A stretch of DNA of 64,000 bases from a phage. This document shows, piece after piece, positions 5,572 through 47,320 of the stretch; positions within the stretch are counted from its first letter, which is position 1, and every line of letters starts with the position of its first letter. Below the pieces are notes generated by a model that saw only the letters and a program-made list of their open reading frames with translations, did not search any database and was not told the DNA's origin. Position numbers and translations under genes: made by a program. The stretch is taken from the sequence record PQ374922.1; one strand, written 5' to 3'.

Positions 5572-5585
5572 AAATAATTCAATAA

Positions 5586-9883: not shown

Positions 9884-10495
9884 ATGAGCAAAATCTTTAT
9901 CCCGTCACACCGCGAAGGATGTGAAATCGCGGCCAACTACCTGCGCGGTCGCATGAACTGCGGCGCTGTCTTCATCGAGCCAAATTCGTTTGACAACAAA
10001 GAATCACCTGATGCCATCGGGTTCCGTTCCGGCGGTTGCTCTATCCTGATGGAAGTGAAGGTGTCTCGCTCTGATTTCCTTACCGACAAGAAGAAGCCCC
10101 ATCGGATGGACCCCACAACAGGTATGGGCGCATACCGCTTTTATGTCTGCCCTCAGGAAGTAATCAGGGTTGAAGACCTACCACCAAAGTGGGGGTTGTT
10201 CTACTTCACACCCCGCAAGTCCCTGATGCCAGTTCATGTGCCAGACATGCAGTACTCTTCATTGTCATCACCGGAGCATTATCAGAAGTACCTTGATGAA
10301 CAGATCAAGAGAGGAAGAACCGTTACCCGGCATATGCGCAGCTACATGGAACTCCTCGACGGCTTCGCCCACTTTGAGCGCAACATGGCTGGGGAACAGA
10401 ATATCCTGTATGGGGCTTGGCGTCAACTGTGTATAGCTCAAAGTCGTGGTGTAGACTATACTGTGACCGAAGTGTTCCAGAGGCCGAAGATCTAA
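9884..10495 (+). CDS. PD-(D/E)xK nuclease-fold protein (VRR-NUC-like motif)
   Basis: Motif SPDAIGF ... ILMEVKVSRSD matches PD...(D/E)xK core; SD AAGGA 7 nt upstream of ATG 9884. Confidence 0.5.
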   Translation: MSKIFIPSHREGCEIAANYLRGRMNCGAVFIEPNSFDNKESPDAIGFRSGGCSILMEVKVSRSDFLTDKKKPHRMDPTTGMGAYRFYVCPQEVIRVEDLPPKWGLFYFTPRKSLMPVHVPDMQYSSLSSPEHYQKYLDEQIKRGRTVTRHMRSYMELLDGFAHFERNMAGEQNILYGAWRQLCIAQSRGVDYTVTEVFQRPKI

Positions 10496-12437: not shown

Positions 12438-12462
12438 AGGCCTCATTCGACGAGGCCTTTTA
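12438..12462 (+). terminator. intrinsic terminator
   Basis: AGGCCTC-loop-GAGGCCT hairpin followed by TTTT. Confidence 0.6.
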
Positions 12463-12474
12463 AAATACTTCAAA

Positions 12475-12495
12475 AATAATTTTTTAAAAATTATT
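12475..12495 (+). repeat. AT-rich perfect palindrome upstream of promoter C
   Basis: AATAATTTTT t AAAAATTATT (10-bp arms, 1-nt centre); candidate UP element or regulator site. Confidence 0.4.
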
Positions 12496-12504
12496 GAAAA
12501 AGAC

Positions 12505-12533
12505 TTTACTCTTCAATAATGATGCACTATTAT
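12505..12533 (+). promoter_or_regulatory. sigma70-like early promoter, copy C (TTTACT-N17-TATTAT)
   Basis: -35 12505..12510, -10 12528..12533; AT-rich palindrome 12475..12495 just upstream. Confidence 0.5.
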
Positions 12534-12606
12534 AGTTCACATAGGGCGGCAACACACCGCCGAATGAAAAGTGAAATGAACCAACTACATTATGAGGAAT
12601 TACATC

Positions 12607-13095
12607 ATGGCTACCACCAAAACTCTGATCACCAACGGCACCATCTCTTTCGAACTGAACACCGAAGTTGCTAAAGTTGAAATGTTCCGCATCGCTCAGG
12701 CAGCTGGCTTCACTGGTGGTAAAACTTCCTTCATGAACCTGCTGAACGGTAAAGTGAAATCGACAAACGGCTTCACCCTGGTAGAGCAGGTTGTGGTTGA
12801 CAAAGCTGTGGTTGATAAGACTGCCGACAAAGTTGGTATGCTGAAAAACCTGGGTCACGACATCCACATTGTCGAAGCAAACACCGAAACTTACGGCACC
12901 ATCGTAGTCGGTAAAGGTCGCATCCAGCTGAACCCGCTGAACAACGGTTCCTTCTCTGTGATGGTCTTCCCTAAGAAGGGATATGACAACACCGACATCG
13001 TGAAAGCTGTTGGCGGCGAAGCAAAAGCTCAGTACGTCAAAATGGGTAAACTGAGCGCCGACGCAGTTGAAGCTCTGGTGAGCAAACTGGCCTAA
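12607..13095 (+). CDS. hypothetical protein, probably abundant
   Basis: Own sigma70-like promoter and terminator; SD GAGGAA; apparently highly biased codon usage (judged by eye); 162 aa. Confidence 0.65.
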   Translation: MATTKTLITNGTISFELNTEVAKVEMFRIAQAAGFTGGKTSFMNLLNGKVKSTNGFTLVEQVVVDKAVVDKTADKVGMLKNLGHDIHIVEANTETYGTIVVGKGRIQLNPLNNGSFSVMVFPKKGYDNTDIVKAVGGEAKAQYVKMGKLSADAVEALVSKLA

Positions 13096-13241
13096 TCCAG
13101 ACGTATAACATAGGGGAGGCAACTCCCCCTATCAGGTCTTGGGAGGAGATCACAGTCATTCAATCCTCTTTAGGCGCTCTCTGGGTTGCTGACACATTCA
13201 GAACAAAGTCTCCCCCAGCTCCTCGAGTAGTTCACTTTCAC

Positions 13242-13249
13242 TTTAAATA
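13242..13249 (+). promoter_or_regulatory. late-promoter-like motif TTTAAATA upstream of endolysin
   Basis: One mismatch to T4 late consensus TATAAATA; lies in 5-prime arm of RBS hairpin, 31 nt before ATG. Confidence 0.4.
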
Positions 13250-13275
13250 CCTCTGCATTCATTGTGGAGGTATTT
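13245..13275 (+). promoter_or_regulatory. RBS-sequestering hairpin at endolysin start
   Basis: 9-bp perfect inverted repeat AAATACCTC / GAGGTATTT (13245..13253, 13267..13275) with 13-nt loop; 3-prime arm contains the GGAGG Shine-Dalgarno. Confidence 0.55.
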
Positions 13276-13279
13276 TCTT

Positions 13280-14074
13280 ATGGCCATTCTAAAACTTGGC
13301 AACCGTGGCACTGAAGTGAAGGCACTTCAGGATAGCCTCAACAAAATCGGCTTCACCCTCGTCGCTGATGGTATCTTTGGCAAGGCAACAGAGAACGCCG
13401 TCAAGACTGTTCAGGCGGGTGCGGGGCTTGTCATTGATGGTATCGTGGGTCCAAAGACCTCCTATGCTATTCGCAACGCCGGAGACGCCCATCAGGATCA
13501 TCTAACTGAGTCAGACCTGATTGATGCTGCTAACGATCTGGGTGTTGACCTTGCCTCTGTCAAGGCGGTGAATCAGGTTGAGTCGCGCGGCACGGGCTTC
13601 ACCAAGTCAGGTAAGATCAAGACATTATTTGAGCGCCACATCATGTATAAGAAGCTGATGGCGAAGTTCGGACAGGCTCGGGCGAATGCCATGGGGCATA
13701 TGTACCCGACGTTGGTCAGTCCTTCCGCAGGCGGGTACACGGGAGGCGACGCGGAGTTGGATCGACTTCATGCGGCCATCAACATCGATGAGGATTGTGC
13801 GTACGAGAGCGCCTCTTACGGTCTCTTCCAGATCATGGGATTCAACTGCCAGGTCTGTGGATATGCCAACGCCAAGGAGATGTTCAACGACTTCCTGACA
13901 GGAGAACGTGCTCATTTGATGGCATTCGTGAAGTTCATCAAGGCTGACGCCAAGCTCTGGCAGGCTCTGAAGGACAAGAACTGGGCTGAGTTTGCGCGGC
14001 GCTATAATGGTCCGGCGTATGCCAAGAACCAGTACGACACGAAGCTCGTAGCAGCATACAAGAGTTTCAGTTAA
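13280..14074 (+). CDS. endolysin (peptidoglycan-binding domain plus muramidase-like catalytic domain)
   Basis: N-terminal PG_binding_1-like repeat (LQDSLNKIGF...DGIFGKATENAVKTVQ...DGIVGPKT); C-terminal domain resembling phage N-acetylmuramidase endolysins; ATG 13280 with GGAGG SD. Confidence 0.7.
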   Translation: MAILKLGNRGTEVKALQDSLNKIGFTLVADGIFGKATENAVKTVQAGAGLVIDGIVGPKTSYAIRNAGDAHQDHLTESDLIDAANDLGVDLASVKAVNQVESRGTGFTKSGKIKTLFERHIMYKKLMAKFGQARANAMGHMYPTLVSPSAGGYTGGDAELDRLHAAINIDEDCAYESASYGLFQIMGFNCQVCGYANAKEMFNDFLTGERAHLMAFVKFIKADAKLWQALKDKNWAEFARRYNGPAYAKNQYDTKLVAAYKSFS

Positions 14075-25908: not shown

Positions 25909-26931
25909 ATGGGTAATTTATTCGATCGTCTGAAAGCATCCCGTGGCCAGCAAACTGAAGCTATGCAGGCGCGTCTTGCACAGCAAGGCCAGAAGTCCGG
26001 TTTCCAGAAGGATCCTCGCATCTGGAAATGGACTTGGAACAAAGATGGTATCTCTGAGAACATCATCCGCTTCCTGCCAGTCCCGCTGGTAGACCTCAAG
26101 GCACAGGAAGAAGGAACGATCGATAAAGATCAGATCCTTACCCCTTGTGCCATGATCATGAAGCATCAGTTCCAGGGACCTGGTGGCTGGTACATTGAGA
26201 ACTCACCTCAGACGTTCGGCAACGACGATCCGGTGCGCGACCATGACCGTCCGCTGTGGGCGCAGCAGAAAGAAACGAACGACGAAAAGCTGAAGGACAT
26301 CCTGAAGAAACGTCTACCCGACACCAAATACTACGCTAACATTCTGGTGATCAAAGATGTCAACGTACCGGAAAACAACGGCAAGGTCTTCCTGCTGGAA
26401 TTTGGTAACGCCATCAAGAAAATCCTGGATCAGGCGCAGAATCCTAAGTTCCCAACCGACCCTAAATTCGATCCGTTCGATCTGTGGGAAGGTGCCAACC
26501 TGAACCTGAAGCTCTTTGGCGAGCAGAAGAAGTTTGGGAACTGGGAAGGTCTGGTGGCAAACTTCAGTAAGGTGGTGTGGGAGAACCCTGCCCCGCTGAG
26601 TGATGACGAAGCGTATATGGAAGACGTCTGGTCTCGCGAGCACAGCCTGTTTGAATTCTTCAATCCGGCTAACTTCAAAGACTACGACTCCCTGGAAAAG
26701 CGCCTGCGCAAAGTTCTGGCAATCCCTGATGACCAGCCTCTGGTTGAAGGTGGTGCAGCCACGATGGCTCATGCTCCTAGCACCCAGACCACACATCAGC
26801 CAACTGCTCAAGACAGCCTGAAACAGCAACAGGCCGCGCCGTCGCAGGCTCAGACTCAGACTCAGTCTCAACCGAATGCCAGAAACACGGCTTCCATTGA
26901 CGAATTCGAGCAGTATCTCAAGTCTAACTGA
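25909..26931 (+). CDS. 32: single-stranded DNA-binding protein (T4 gp32 family)
   Basis: Core matches remembered T4 gp32: IIRFLP, YYANILVIKDVNVPENNGKVF (T4 [21 protein letters not shown]), WEGANL; acidic C-terminal tail. Confidence 0.92.
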   Translation: MGNLFDRLKASRGQQTEAMQARLAQQGQKSGFQKDPRIWKWTWNKDGISENIIRFLPVPLVDLKAQEEGTIDKDQILTPCAMIMKHQFQGPGGWYIENSPQTFGNDDPVRDHDRPLWAQQKETNDEKLKDILKKRLPDTKYYANILVIKDVNVPENNGKVFLLEFGNAIKKILDQAQNPKFPTDPKFDPFDLWEGANLNLKLFGEQKKFGNWEGLVANFSKVVWENPAPLSDDEAYMEDVWSREHSLFEFFNPANFKDYDSLEKRLRKVLAIPDDQPLVEGGAATMAHAPSTQTTHQPTAQDSLKQQQAAPSQAQTQTQSQPNARNTASIDEFEQYLKSN

Positions 26932-29957: not shown

Positions 29958-30794
29958 ATGTCATATATTCTTCATGTGGATTCTGGAACCAAAATTGAAA
30001 TTGAAGGCAAAGACGTTGCGGCTATCCAGGCTGAAATCAAAGAAGCAGGTCTGATCATCGGAAACGTTACCCTGCGCCGTATGGTTGAAGGTGTTCTTCA
30101 GGCTGCCAACGGCTTCGAACTGATTGAAGGTCTGAGCGCTGAAGAGAAGGAAGAAACTCAGCAGGCTCTGGCGCAAGCCCAAGAGCAAGCCCAAGCTGAA
30201 GTATCGCTGAAAGTCGCTGAAACTATTGATGCTGAAGCACCGATCTCTGCCGATGCATGTGAAGCCCCAGTGTCCGACGCCCCGGTAGACGCGGTTGAAG
30301 ATGCAGTCAACGCGGCGCTGGAAGAAGGTAATCAGCCGTCCGACGCGAAAATCGGTTCCTTGGCGTCTTCTATGCTGAAAGAAGCATCGAAGGGTAAGAC
30401 CCTGACCCCGCAGGCAGCGCTGGTAGAGCGTAAACGCCGTCACACCAAACGTGAGGAAATGGTTGACTTGGCTCGCGCTTCTAATCACGGTCCGGTCTTG
30501 GCGGCGATTGAAGCTGGTGTTGTCCCCGGCGTGTTCCTGAGCTACGTGAACCCAGACATGCGTTGGTTCCAGTTCCCGGTCACCGAACTGGCTAACCCTG
30601 AAAACCTTCACGCTCGCACCAATACGTATGTCGACGTTGCGCCTATCGTTTCCGGTGGCTGGGGCTTCAGTCTGTACGTGAACGGCAAGTCCTTCACCAA
30701 ACGTCAGAAGATCAAAGAGTCTGATGCTGAGTCTCTGGTTAAGGCGATCAATGAATGGCTTCCACAGGCTCTGGCTGAAGCGAAAGCTGTGTAA
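29958..30794 (+). CDS. acidic hypothetical protein, probably abundant early protein
   Basis: Own near-consensus promoter (TTTACA-17-TATTAT) and terminator; Glu/Asp/Ala-rich central region; apparently strongly biased codon usage (judged by eye). Confidence 0.6.
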   Translation: MSYILHVDSGTKIEIEGKDVAAIQAEIKEAGLIIGNVTLRRMVEGVLQAANGFELIEGLSAEEKEETQQALAQAQEQAQAEVSLKVAETIDAEAPISADACEAPVSDAPVDAVEDAVNAALEEGNQPSDAKIGSLASSMLKEASKGKTLTPQAALVERKRRHTKREEMVDLARASNHGPVLAAIEAGVVPGVFLSYVNPDMRWFQFPVTELANPENLHARTNTYVDVAPIVSGGWGFSLYVNGKSFTKRQKIKESDAESLVKAINEWLPQALAEAKAV

Positions 30795-30823
30795 ATTTAA
30801 GTTCAGAAACTGTTCAAAAGATG

Positions 30824-30858
30824 AAGGGGCTGCTATAATAGCAGCTCCTTTTGTTTAT
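30824..30858 (+). terminator. intrinsic terminator
   Basis: 12-bp stem AAGGGGCTGCTA/TAGCAGCTCCTT followed by TTGTTTATT. Confidence 0.6.
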
Positions 30859-30869
30859 TGGAGCAGTTT

Positions 30870-37571: not shown

Positions 37572-37635
37572 GCAATTCAATAAGGCGGGTCATAGGGTAT
37601 AATTCTATGATCTGAATGTAAACCAGGAGCACATC

Positions 37636-45380: not shown

Positions 45381-46769
45381 TTAAACCTTCTGTGCTTGGC
45401 CTTTCTCAATCGCCTGAGGAGTAGTGGTGGAAGCAGTTGTCTGATTGGTCTGAGGTGGAAGCACCTGCTCCAGCAAACTGTCCTTGGCAATCTCAGCGAT
45501 GCACTGATAATCTTTGGTCAGGCGGGAAATCTTGTGACGCACTTTGGTCACGATATAGTGGCCTGTCGATAGCTTACTTAACTCTGCCAGGTTTTCGTTC
45601 TTCTTAGGACGGTTGGACTGGTCTTCGACGTAGAACACCTGACCGACGTTCAGGCGGTTATCACCAACGAGCAACACGCGCATCACAGTGCTGGCAAGAC
45701 TGAAGTTGATAACACGACGAGCATAATCAATCTGCTCCGCTCCATCCGGCTGGGCTTCAATGTAACGGACGTTCTGACGATTGAATTCATCTGAGAACAT
45801 CGGGAACGGATCAAGATGAGCCGTCTCTGCAAACCACTCAGTATAGATGCGCTGTGTTGGGGTGACTGTCTTGGTCTCAAAGTCGTAGACGCGCTCGTTC
45901 ACCGCCAGGACATCGCGGTAGTTTGCCATGAACTGGTCACGCGCCAGCTTCTTCTCTGCCTTGATGATCGTGCGCATAAAGCGCTCAGAGTTGAAGTTGT
46001 TATCCTGCATGAGCGGCGCGTCCTGAGGATCACGGAACAACTTGTTCTGCTGAGCTAGTTCCTGCTTCTCTTCTGCTGTCAATGACTGGCTGCCCTGGTT
46101 GAACAACGTCGTCAGGCTCTTGAAGTGATAGCCATTGAAGTCTTCATAGAACACGAATGGCATGAACAATTCGTCATAAGAACGGCTCGCCATATAATCA
46201 ATAGATCGCAGCACAGGCCAGAGCGGGGTGGCGAACCGCTCTTGAATTCCATATGACGGGTCGATGTCTTCGAACTTGGTGCGCGACTCCAACTGATTGA
46301 AGATTGTCTTTGCCATGTCAGAGTACGAACCGTCAAGACCGAGGGAGCATCGGATCATGCTGTCCTTATAGGCATCGGTGGTCACCATGTGCAACCAGAA
46401 TGCTTTCTTGGACGAGCTGTTGGACTCATCAGCTACGCGCCCAACACGCGCTACGCGCAGGGAGAGAGTGGTGTATTCCGAGGCCGCCGGACTCTTGAAT
46501 GACACCACAACTTCTTCACCACCCAAGATAGGCATTGTGTCAAGAATGTCCCACCCTTCTTTTATCAAGACATTGGCTGTAAGCGATGGAGATGACTTCC
46601 CTTCAAGACCCAGATCCTGGAAGACGTTGAACTCCTCAAACAACGCCGTCAGGTCATATGGCGTTGGTGATCCACCCTGGGGTGTATGAGGGAGTATCGC
46701 CATATACTTCAGGTCAAATGTTGTTGACGGTGTTACAATACCGTCTTGGGTCTCTCTGTTTTCGATCAT
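45381..46769 (-). CDS. baseplate hub/tail structural protein (putative)
   Basis: 462 aa; translationally coupled within structural operon upstream of tape-measure gene; no enzymatic motifs. Confidence 0.4.
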   Translation of the reverse strand: MIENRETQDGIVTPSTTFDLKYMAILPHTPQGGSPTPYDLTALFEEFNVFQDLGLEGKSSPSLTANVLIKEGWDILDTMPILGGEEVVVSFKSPAASEYTTLSLRVARVGRVADESNSSSKKAFWLHMVTTDAYKDSMIRCSLGLDGSYSDMAKTIFNQLESRTKFEDIDPSYGIQERFATPLWPVLRSIDYMASRSYDELFMPFVFYEDFNGYHFKSLTTLFNQGSQSLTAEEKQELAQQNKLFRDPQDAPLMQDNNFNSERFMRTIIKAEKKLARDQFMANYRDVLAVNERVYDFETKTVTPTQRIYTEWFAETAHLDPFPMFSDEFNRQNVRYIEAQPDGAEQIDYARRVINFSLASTVMRVLLVGDNRLNVGQVFYVEDQSNRPKKNENLAELSKLSTGHYIVTKVRHKISRLTKDYQCIAEIAKDSLLEQVLPPQTNQTTASTTTPQAIEKGQAQKV

Positions 46770-47320
46770 TTCGCCAACTCCTGCTCCAGCTGATTGACAA
46801 ACGAAGACACATAATCTGGGTCGAGTACTTGGATGTTCCGTTTGGCTTCATTCTTACTGATTGCATCATCATGGTATGAAACTGCCGTCAGACCATAGTT
46901 AGCAATTATGGACGGCTCATCCAGGTCTAGGTTATATGCGAATTTGATAGCACGGGCGTCGGTCACATTGTTGAACTGGTCGACATAATAGGCTGTATCC
47001 CACATACCATCGATGCCGTAATCTGCAGTCAGTTCTTCAACAATACGGCGTTCCGGTTTCGGCCAGTCCTTATTGATGTCCATGATGCCGTTTATCAGAC
47101 AAGGTATCCAAAACAACTCGAAGGATCCGTAAACGCGTTCTGCGAAAGACCTTGGGGTTTCCCCATCTTGGATCGTATACGGCAGGAGAAGCCCTTCGAT
47201 GTCCTTAATTTTCTGTAAGATCATCACCCGGCGCGTTAAATTCTGTAACAGCACCTGATCATTCTCTTGGACATCTTGCAATTGATGCCAAACAAGTGGA
47301 AACTTCTCAAAATATTTCAT
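46766..47320 (-). CDS. baseplate protein with LysM-like motif (putative)
   Basis: 184 aa; YTIQDGETPRSFAERVYG fits LysM pattern (Y.V..GDT...IA..Y); LysM-containing baseplate proteins are known in T4/P2-like tails. Confidence 0.4.
   Translation of the reverse strand: MKYFEKFPLVWHQLQDVQENDQVLLQNLTRRVMILQKIKDIEGLLLPYTIQDGETPRSFAERVYGSFELFWIPCLINGIMDINKDWPKPERRIVEELTADYGIDGMWDTAYYVDQFNNVTDARAIKFAYNLDLDEPSIIANYGLTAVSYHDDAISKNEAKRNIQVLDPDYVSSFVNQLEQELAK

Follow-up and report, generated by a model that had tools for sequence, protein, structure and literature searches.

We examined a 64,000-nucleotide stretch of phage DNA (sequence record PQ374922.1; hereafter the window) and describe here one of its genes, a 162-codon open reading frame (ORF) at 12607-13095 on the plus strand that appears to be built for unusually high expression. 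The ORF, which a preliminary description of this DNA had already delimited, encodes a 17.2-kDa protein with an isoelectric point (pI) of 9.25 and matches PHROG 3764 ("unknown function") over positions 1-162 of 162 with an E-value of 3e-91. A DNA search with the surrounding region returned 222 phage records at 80-99% identity, labeled mostly as Salmonella, Escherichia, Dickeya, Shigella, and Enterobacter phages; the closest relative was Escherichia phage A221, with 98% identity to an 801-nt region of the window. Every DNA match whose taxonomy was checked fell in the Ackermannviridae, and the window phage is a ViI-like member of the subfamily Aglimvirinae in that family. At the protein level (tblastn) there were homologs of the gene in 355 phage records, of Ackermannviridae type and with hosts as different as Vibrio and Escherichia. 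The annotation was "hypothetical protein" in every annotated record listed, and the protein resembles nothing characterized, which agrees with its earlier description as uncharacterized.

The local gene order runs homing endonuclease, gp61-type primase, a small ORF, the target gene, endolysin, PhoH, and NrdA, and the same order is found in phages LIMEstone1, A221, bering, FKP14, phiEa2809, Kevin, and Sajous1; the target orthologs are ORF073 in LIMEstone1 and gp1 in Sajous1 (93% identity). The primase operon upstream ends in a terminator-like hairpin that we read from the sequence (AGGCCTC-ATTCGAC-GAGGCCT followed by TTT, 12438-12461, plus strand). Our terminator scan missed this hairpin because only four T residues follow the stem, but its stem is kept while its loop has changed in relatives, and the LIMEstone1 record labels the equivalent hairpin a "putative factor-independent terminator." Since this hairpin closes the upstream operon, the target unit stands alone, as had been proposed for it.

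The promoter is of the sigma70 type. A promoter scan recovered the previously noted TTTACT-17-TATTAT arrangement at 12505-12533, with the -35 hexamer TTTACT at 12505-12510 and the -10 hexamer TATTAT at 12528-12533, both on the plus strand and together having 9 of 12 matches to the sigma70 consensus (4/6 for the -35 and 5/6 for the -10, with a 17-nt spacer). The LIMEstone1 record annotates the same -10 as a "putative middle promoter," and there was no late-type TAAATA motif upstream of the target gene. Transcription is predicted to start at about 12539-12541. An alignment of the upstream regions covering seven genera showed the CTTTAC core of the -35 to be invariant and the -10 to read TATTAT or TATATT; the leader hairpin, an A-rich AAGTGAAA stretch, and the ribosome-binding site were likewise conserved.

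Immediately upstream of the -35 lies an A/T-rich tract (12459-12504, about 84-90% A+T) in which the A+T content is 90% over the 30 nt and 84% over the 50 nt before the -35. An UP element is defined by A/T richness from -40 to -60 (PMC2988021), and the target promoter has this composition at this position. In the alignment of upstream regions the tract was kept in all seven genera despite drift of its sequence, and this conserved A/T richness fits an UP-like element to which the C-terminal domain of the RNA polymerase alpha subunit may bind. Inside the tract is the perfect 10+1+10 palindrome AATAATTTTT-T-AAAAATTATT (12475-12495) that had drawn attention to the locus and was suggested to bind a host or phage regulator. 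As an operator controlling the target gene it has in its favor that it is perfect, that it is the sole copy in the window, against an expectation of zero from shuffling, and that even the local A/T composition makes it improbable (P ~0.002 in local shuffles). The comparison with relatives speaks otherwise. Of the phages compared, only the window phage and its 98%-identical relative A221 (10+10) have 10-bp arms; the arms shrink to at most 5 bp in LIMEstone1, bering, and FKP14 although the flanking promoter is 87-97% identical; the pattern is also absent elsewhere in the window, even at three mismatches, and an UP-like element in the A/T tract accounts for the part that is conserved, namely A/T richness. 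We therefore regard an operator at this site as highly improbable, and think that the palindrome probably arose within one lineage as a by-product of the A/T tract.

The region also holds a conserved element that the preliminary description had not noticed. An octamer, TTCAATAA, lies inside the promoter spacer (12512-12519, plus strand), and an upstream copy in reverse orientation, TTATTGAA, lies at 12491-12498 (minus strand), so that the two form an inverted pair bracketing the -35. This pair is present in 7/7 enteric-host genera examined; the target promoter carries two or three boxes in all seven, with an extra copy in Kevin and with the arms swapped in phiEa2809. The window as a whole holds 12 copies of TTCAATAA where 2.0 are expected (about 6-fold enrichment; 0/100 shuffles reached 12), and eight of the 12 fall in the non-coding 10% of the window (binomial P = 4e-6). 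Non-coding copies made up 7/7 in A221 (1-50 kb) and 6/11 in bering (84-114 kb). When 7-mers were ranked by the number of upstream regions in which they occur, TCAATAA and TTCAATA came out on top, tied with TGAAGAA at 6 of 43 regions each, and their chance expectation is below that of TGAAGAA.

Copies of TTCAATAA stand at window positions 5578, 12491 (minus strand), 12512, 29846, 37576, 38348, 40122, and 50462, at A221 positions 21593-21620, 31835, 32095, 33094, 33116, and 44591, and in bering at 13517, 20821, 21565, and 21581 (L012 numbering). The promoter copies are situated just upstream of genes on the same strand. Some boxes flank a TTTAC(T/A) -35 (window 5578, 29846, and 38348, with a second inverted pair at A221 21593-21620), and others occur by themselves, 12-14 nt ahead of a TATAAT and so near -30 (window 37576 and 40122; A221 31835 and 32095). 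Across promoters the distance from box to -10 ranges from 6 to 14 nt, and the box is often alongside a TTTAC -35. The boxes are kept at orthologous promoters in Kuttervirus bering and in Sajous1; the promoters of the Vibrio homologs were found to be without the octamer. All the ORFs behind the other TTCAATAA/TTTAC promoters are of unknown function and several are small (~100-120 aa), both common traits of early genes. We found no description of the motif in the literature, for T4 or for other phages, and on its distribution we propose TTCAATAA as a candidate signature of the early/middle promoters of the family.

Two further observations concern promoter-like sequences in the window. A 278-aa ORF at 29958-30794 (plus strand), which matches phrog_3905 ("unknown function") and has the third-highest codon adaptation in the window, is preceded by a TTCAATAA/TTTACA-17-TATTAT promoter; its Sajous1 ortholog, gp29, was represented by 10 spectra in purified virions. 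In addition, several perfect TATAAT hexamers occur in the loops of short hairpins at 30795-30869 and 37590-37610, examples being GCTGC-TATAATA-GCAGC and CATAG-GGTATAATT-CTATG.

The messenger predicted from this promoter has structure at both ends. Close to its 5' end folding and comparison identified a hairpin, GGCGG-N7-CCGCC (12545-12561, plus strand), whose stem is invariant and whose loop is 7-11 nt long in A221, LIMEstone1, bering, FKP14, and phiEa2809. The Shine-Dalgarno sequence GAGGAA, present as earlier described (12594-12599, plus strand), lies 7 nt before the ATG at 12607 and is conserved in relatives; an in-frame ATG at 12592 was rejected as the start, as it lacks a ribosome-binding site and, in FKP14 and Kevin, either falls in another frame or is missing. 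Conservation is higher in promoter and leader together than in the coding sequence (87% versus 77% identity with FKP14, and 92% versus 90% with bering), and the greater conservation of the leader hints at post-transcriptional control.

Downstream, a G+C-rich hairpin with a GCAA tetraloop begins 15 nt after the stop codon (13110-13132, plus strand) and folds at about -17.7 kcal/mol in a 50-nt context. The preliminary description had taken it for a terminator; the hairpin is real, but its stem is followed by UAUCAGGUCUU with no U-run on the plus strand, and our terminator scan made a call on the minus strand only. Because a U-tract is missing, we read the structure as a leaky terminator or a 3' stabilizer and not as a canonical terminator. 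A hairpin was found at the equivalent position in 8/8 phages examined, in the relatives as a 6-8-bp G+C stem capped by a tetraloop (GCAA, GAAA, UUCG, or AACC) 8-25 nt after the stop. These hairpins are built from differing sequences, with covariation judged by inspecting the per-sequence folds, MAFFT being unable to register the 16-nt cores. Rfam contained no family for the leader or the 3' region, the sole match being one expected by chance (E = 0.52). Both the leader hairpin and the 3' hairpin may serve to stabilize the mRNA.

The codon usage of the gene, which had been judged by eye to be strongly biased, was compared with that of the other window genes by ranking the codon adaptation index (CAI) of the 86 window ORFs of at least 66 codons. 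We used two sets of weights, the Sharp-Li table and a set recomputed from 29 MG1655 ribosomal-protein, EF-Tu, EF-G, and rpoA genes; the two tables correlate with r = 0.98. The target gene ranked first of 86 with both, having a CAI of 0.68 (z +4.1) by the Sharp-Li table and 0.744 (z +3.6) by the recomputed weights. It also has the lowest effective number of codons in the window (32.2), and only 17 of its 161 codons have w < 0.3 by the recomputed weights, so that the visual impression of bias was well founded. In A221 the gene topped all those scored, with a CAI of 0.764 compared to 0.716 for the major capsid protein, 0.665 for the scaffold, 0.607 for the sheath, 0.584 for the gp45 clamp, and 0.509 for the tail tube. 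A separate calculation gave the same order, and as it follows expected abundance the CAI scale appears meaningful here. Orthologs in Dickeya, Salmonella, Klebsiella, Serratia, and Erwinia phages had CAI values of 0.58-0.71. Codon adaptation above that of the A221 capsid, scaffold, and sheath genes supports the earlier suggestion of a unit designed for very high expression, and the protein is predicted to be both early and abundant.

Two other ORFs deserve mention here. An antisense "shadow" ORF of 212 aa (12484-13122, minus strand) spans the whole target gene; we found no support for it, and the strong codon bias of the plus strand probably gave rise to it. Outside the window, A221 46748-47119 encodes a 123-aa hypothetical protein (phrog_2018) whose CAI of 0.74 is as high as that of the capsid gene, making it a second small, very codon-adapted orphan in A221.

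The product of the target gene has no Cys and no Trp. An AlphaFold model made from a 26-sequence alignment (mean predicted local distance difference test score 84.4) divides it into two domains, an N-domain (residues 1-64) of beta-beta-alpha-alpha-beta topology and a C-domain (residues 75-162) of alpha-beta4-alpha-beta-alpha topology, with a disordered linker at residues 65-71. There were 61 close homologs, and a deep hidden Markov model search of 1.8 billion representatives gave 38 matches at E <= 0.001, most of them small unannotated proteins of the target family and a few of them long proteins matched over a short repeat. In distant members both domains are retained, joined by linkers of 9-119 aa of which some are K/R/A/P-rich, and in one distant member the N-domain is fused to DUF3489 (a Pfam match), which we take to be a winged helix. 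The family has a median pI of 9.2, with values above 8 in 27/37 members, and the strands of the C-domain carry conserved polar, aromatic, and basic residues (TETYGT, GRxQxNP, FPKKGY, and QYVKxGK). No substantive sequence match was found in Pfam, NCBIfam, PADLOC, or the PDB (phmmer/hmmsearch); Foldseek gave no match against the PDB, and a BFVD fold search recovered only uncharacterized family members. One matching record, "Enterococcus phage Efm 3-10" (OR844944.1; 38.5 kb, unannotated), holds a 94%-identical copy of the target gene and is likely mislabeled or contaminated.

Several functional assignments for the protein were tried and rejected. The motif A33-GFTG-GKT fits the P-loop pattern [AG]x4GK[ST], but other members have R, S, or Q in place of the Lys, a helix precedes the motif, and the domain has only 64 residues, features that do not suit a P-loop NTPase. 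Weak matches to FeoB and to ABC transporters arose because the GFTGGKTSFMNLLNGK motif mimics Walker A. At window 12639-12654 (protein residues 33-48) the motif A-GFTG-GKTSFMNLLNGK agrees with the PROSITE P-loop pattern and also resembles a 29-aa repeat (KTLYELAVEGGYKGTEAEW..LLNN) of the unrelated protein P0090; a helix-turn-helix hairpin is more probable here than a site for nucleotide binding. Homology to T4 Ndd received a probability of 0.1%.

The combination of two domains and a linker recalls T4 MotA (PF09114 + PF09158), and in view of the boxes we asked whether the protein could be the early/middle (prereplicative) transcription regulator of the Ackermannviridae, a functional MotA analog, by convergence or very remote descent, that would bind the TTCAATAA boxes. 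Its C-domain would occupy those boxes that lie near -30 or beside the -35, with autoregulation through the inverted pair at its own -35. Such a role would suit the 6-fold enrichment of TTCAATAA and its location at promoters, the conservation of the boxes at orthologous Kuttervirus promoters, the two or three boxes at the gene's own promoter in seven enteric genera, and the occurrence of some boxes 12-14 nt upstream of the -10, which is the MotA-box position. It would also fill a gap, for the paper on CBA120 found no early promoters by informatics and reported the ViI-like phages to be without MotA, AsiA, Alt, ModA, or known early/middle control (PMC3184105). Against it, membership of the MotA family itself was rejected: there was no Pfam match to the MotA domains PF09158 (MotCF, the double-wing) and PF09114 (the helical sigma70-binding domain), no member of the target family matches Pfam MotCF or MotA_activ, hhalign gave probabilities of 3.3% and 0.7% against a 21-member MotA alignment and 0.1% with a single sequence, and the beta-beta-alpha-alpha-beta N-domain differs from the helical N-domain of MotA. 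The box sequence is also different from that of MotA, and the 6-14 nt between box and -10 is unlike a fixed activator site; moreover, capsid-level expression would be unusual for a transcription factor, and the Vibrio homologs have promoters without the octamer. We consider such a regulator unlikely, and treat the resemblance to MotA as a weak lead, of interest only for the coexisting box-type promoter element.

Published virion proteomes allowed us to ask whether the protein is packaged. ORF073 is absent from the 39 virion proteins of LIMEstone1, and gp1 is absent from the list of about 60 proteins identified by mass spectrometry in CsCl-purified virions of Sajous1, a list that includes traces of the single-stranded DNA-binding protein (SSB), glutaredoxin, endolysin, dUTPase, and thymidylate synthase. 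Sajous1 gp216, which was detected by mass spectrometry, had been considered as the ortholog and was set aside, as the Sajous1 record shows the ortholog to be gp1. That the protein goes undetected in virions argues against an internal or decoration protein, and the role of internal protein, one of those raised in the preliminary description, finds no support in either proteome. The broader proposal, that the protein takes part in morphogenesis or is associated with the virion (as scaffold, decoration, or internal head protein), has in its favor a codon adaptation comparable to that of the capsid and scaffold genes and a size typical of decoration or internal proteins. To be set against this are the two proteomes, trace contaminants of the Sajous1 list included, a sigma70-type promoter with no late TAAATA, and a gene position among replication and nucleotide-metabolism genes and not in the structural module, and we give this proposal very little credence.

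The reading that we favor, with moderate confidence, is that of a monocistronic, very strongly expressed gene of the early class whose non-virion product acts stoichiometrically, our best guess being a nucleic-acid binder. A predicted output like that of a capsid gene, together with the lack of enzyme-like features or of a catalytic signature, makes stoichiometric action most likely; the basic charge and the two flexibly tethered modules lead to the same conclusion. Binding of nucleic acid as the specific function, whether architectural or regulatory, is a more tentative proposal, possible but doubtful. Several points count against the reading as a whole. Codon adaptation is a proxy for expression only, and our literature search found no transcriptome, transcription start site, or infected-cell proteome for the Ackermannviridae. 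Five family members are acidic. At depth the protein is 47-53% identical where neighboring enzymes are 61-70% identical, so it evolves faster than they do. Lastly, the absence of any trace of it from virion preparations that carry SSB is mild evidence against overwhelming abundance at lysis.

The faster divergence bears on a rival reading, in which the protein serves takeover or anti-defense by binding or inhibiting some abundant host protein in stoichiometric amounts, and does not bind nucleic acid; its logic would be that of T7 Gp5.5 (which binds H-NS), T7 Ocr, and T4 Arn. Divergence beyond that of neighboring enzymes is common for host-interaction proteins, and the early-gene expression profile, the very high codon adaptation, and the limitation of the protein to one phage family would all be in keeping with such a role. 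The best fold resemblances of the C-domain, moreover, were to protein-protein interaction modules (Atg3/UBC, RWD, and UEV domains, type III chaperone-like proteins such as SycH and DR_1245, PsiB, and the TriTu immunity protein). On the other side, the protein is basic and thus no acidic mimic, it has no PADLOC match, and it is conserved from Vibrio to Escherichia phages, so its target would have to be very conserved. We rate this rival as somewhat improbable, though it is the one that we take most seriously.

Under the favored reading of an abundant non-virion protein, host sigma70 RNA polymerase would start at TTTACT-17-TATTAT, probably boosted by the A/T-rich UP-like tract, at a promoter of the class that carries TTCAATAA boxes throughout this phage. 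The resulting mRNA would have a stable 5' hairpin, a good ribosome-binding site, almost only host-optimal codons, and a 3' tetraloop hairpin. Its product, a basic 17-kDa protein of two small alpha/beta domains on a variable flexible linker, would be made in capsid-like amounts, would not be packaged, and would act stoichiometrically inside the infected cell.

Parts of this scheme have parallels in well-studied systems. The T4 gene 32 unit stands alone, is expressed at a very high level, and has a structured 5' leader that is conserved, and the target unit is like it in its separateness, its high expected expression, and a structured leader more conserved than the coding sequence; the likeness does not extend to the product, since the phage has its own gp32-type SSB (window 25909-26931) that is unrelated to the target protein. 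Among nucleoid-associated proteins, such as HU, H-NS, and TF1 of SPO1, which acts on hydroxymethyluracil (hmU)-containing DNA, there are small, basic, and very abundant proteins, as the target protein appears to be, and its linker-joined modules are as in H-NS. The Ackermannviridae themselves use a hypermodified thymidine derived from hmU. The target protein nevertheless has neither homology to nor the fold of HU/IHF or H-NS, and DNA binding by it is conjecture. The promoter, for its part, resembles the early "uber" UP/-35/TGn/-10 promoters of T4 (PMC2988021) in its host-type -35 and -10, its 17-nt spacer, its A/T-rich sequence from -40 to -60, and its location in a T4-related genome ahead of a gene without an assigned function; it differs from them in having no TGn, hexamers with 4/6 and 5/6 matches, and TTCAATAA boxes flanking the -35. 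The T4 early sigma70 promoters drive prereplicative genes (Hinton 2010, PMC2988021), and a 2024 review of the Ackermannviridae makes no mention of promoters or transcription.

The surroundings of the gene yielded some observations of their own. The spacer downstream of it (13096-13279) contains no ORF; homologs of LIMEstone1 ORF072 and ORF071 are missing here in both the window and A221, and a ribosome-binding-site remnant, GGGAGGAGAT, is still found in the spacer. The same spacer holds a TAAATA belonging to the endolysin neighbor (13244-13249), at a site annotated as a late promoter in LIMEstone1, and a hairpin at 13245-13275 just before the endolysin start. Upstream, an ORF at 10417/10495-11151 (plus strand), between an ORF of unknown function and the primase, occupies the position of the homing endonuclease F-LimV of LIMEstone1; the same interval contains an annotated MobD.6-like ORF and 280 nt of unannotated sequence in A221, and is without an extra gene in bering.

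Ackermannviridae are widely isolated and are used in biocontrol, and their takeover of the host is essentially unstudied. The expression unit described here is of an ordinary kind, and what it suggests is the importance of the orphan protein that it encodes. As the most codon-adapted ORF that we found, above even the capsid gene, and as one conserved through the family, the gene is a first-rank candidate for a major intracellular player; should the protein prove an ordinary abundant accessory protein, the finding would be of local interest only. The promoter-leader cassette may also serve as a strong expression module, and the class of promoters marked by TTCAATAA boxes offers a concrete handle on the early promoter code of the family.

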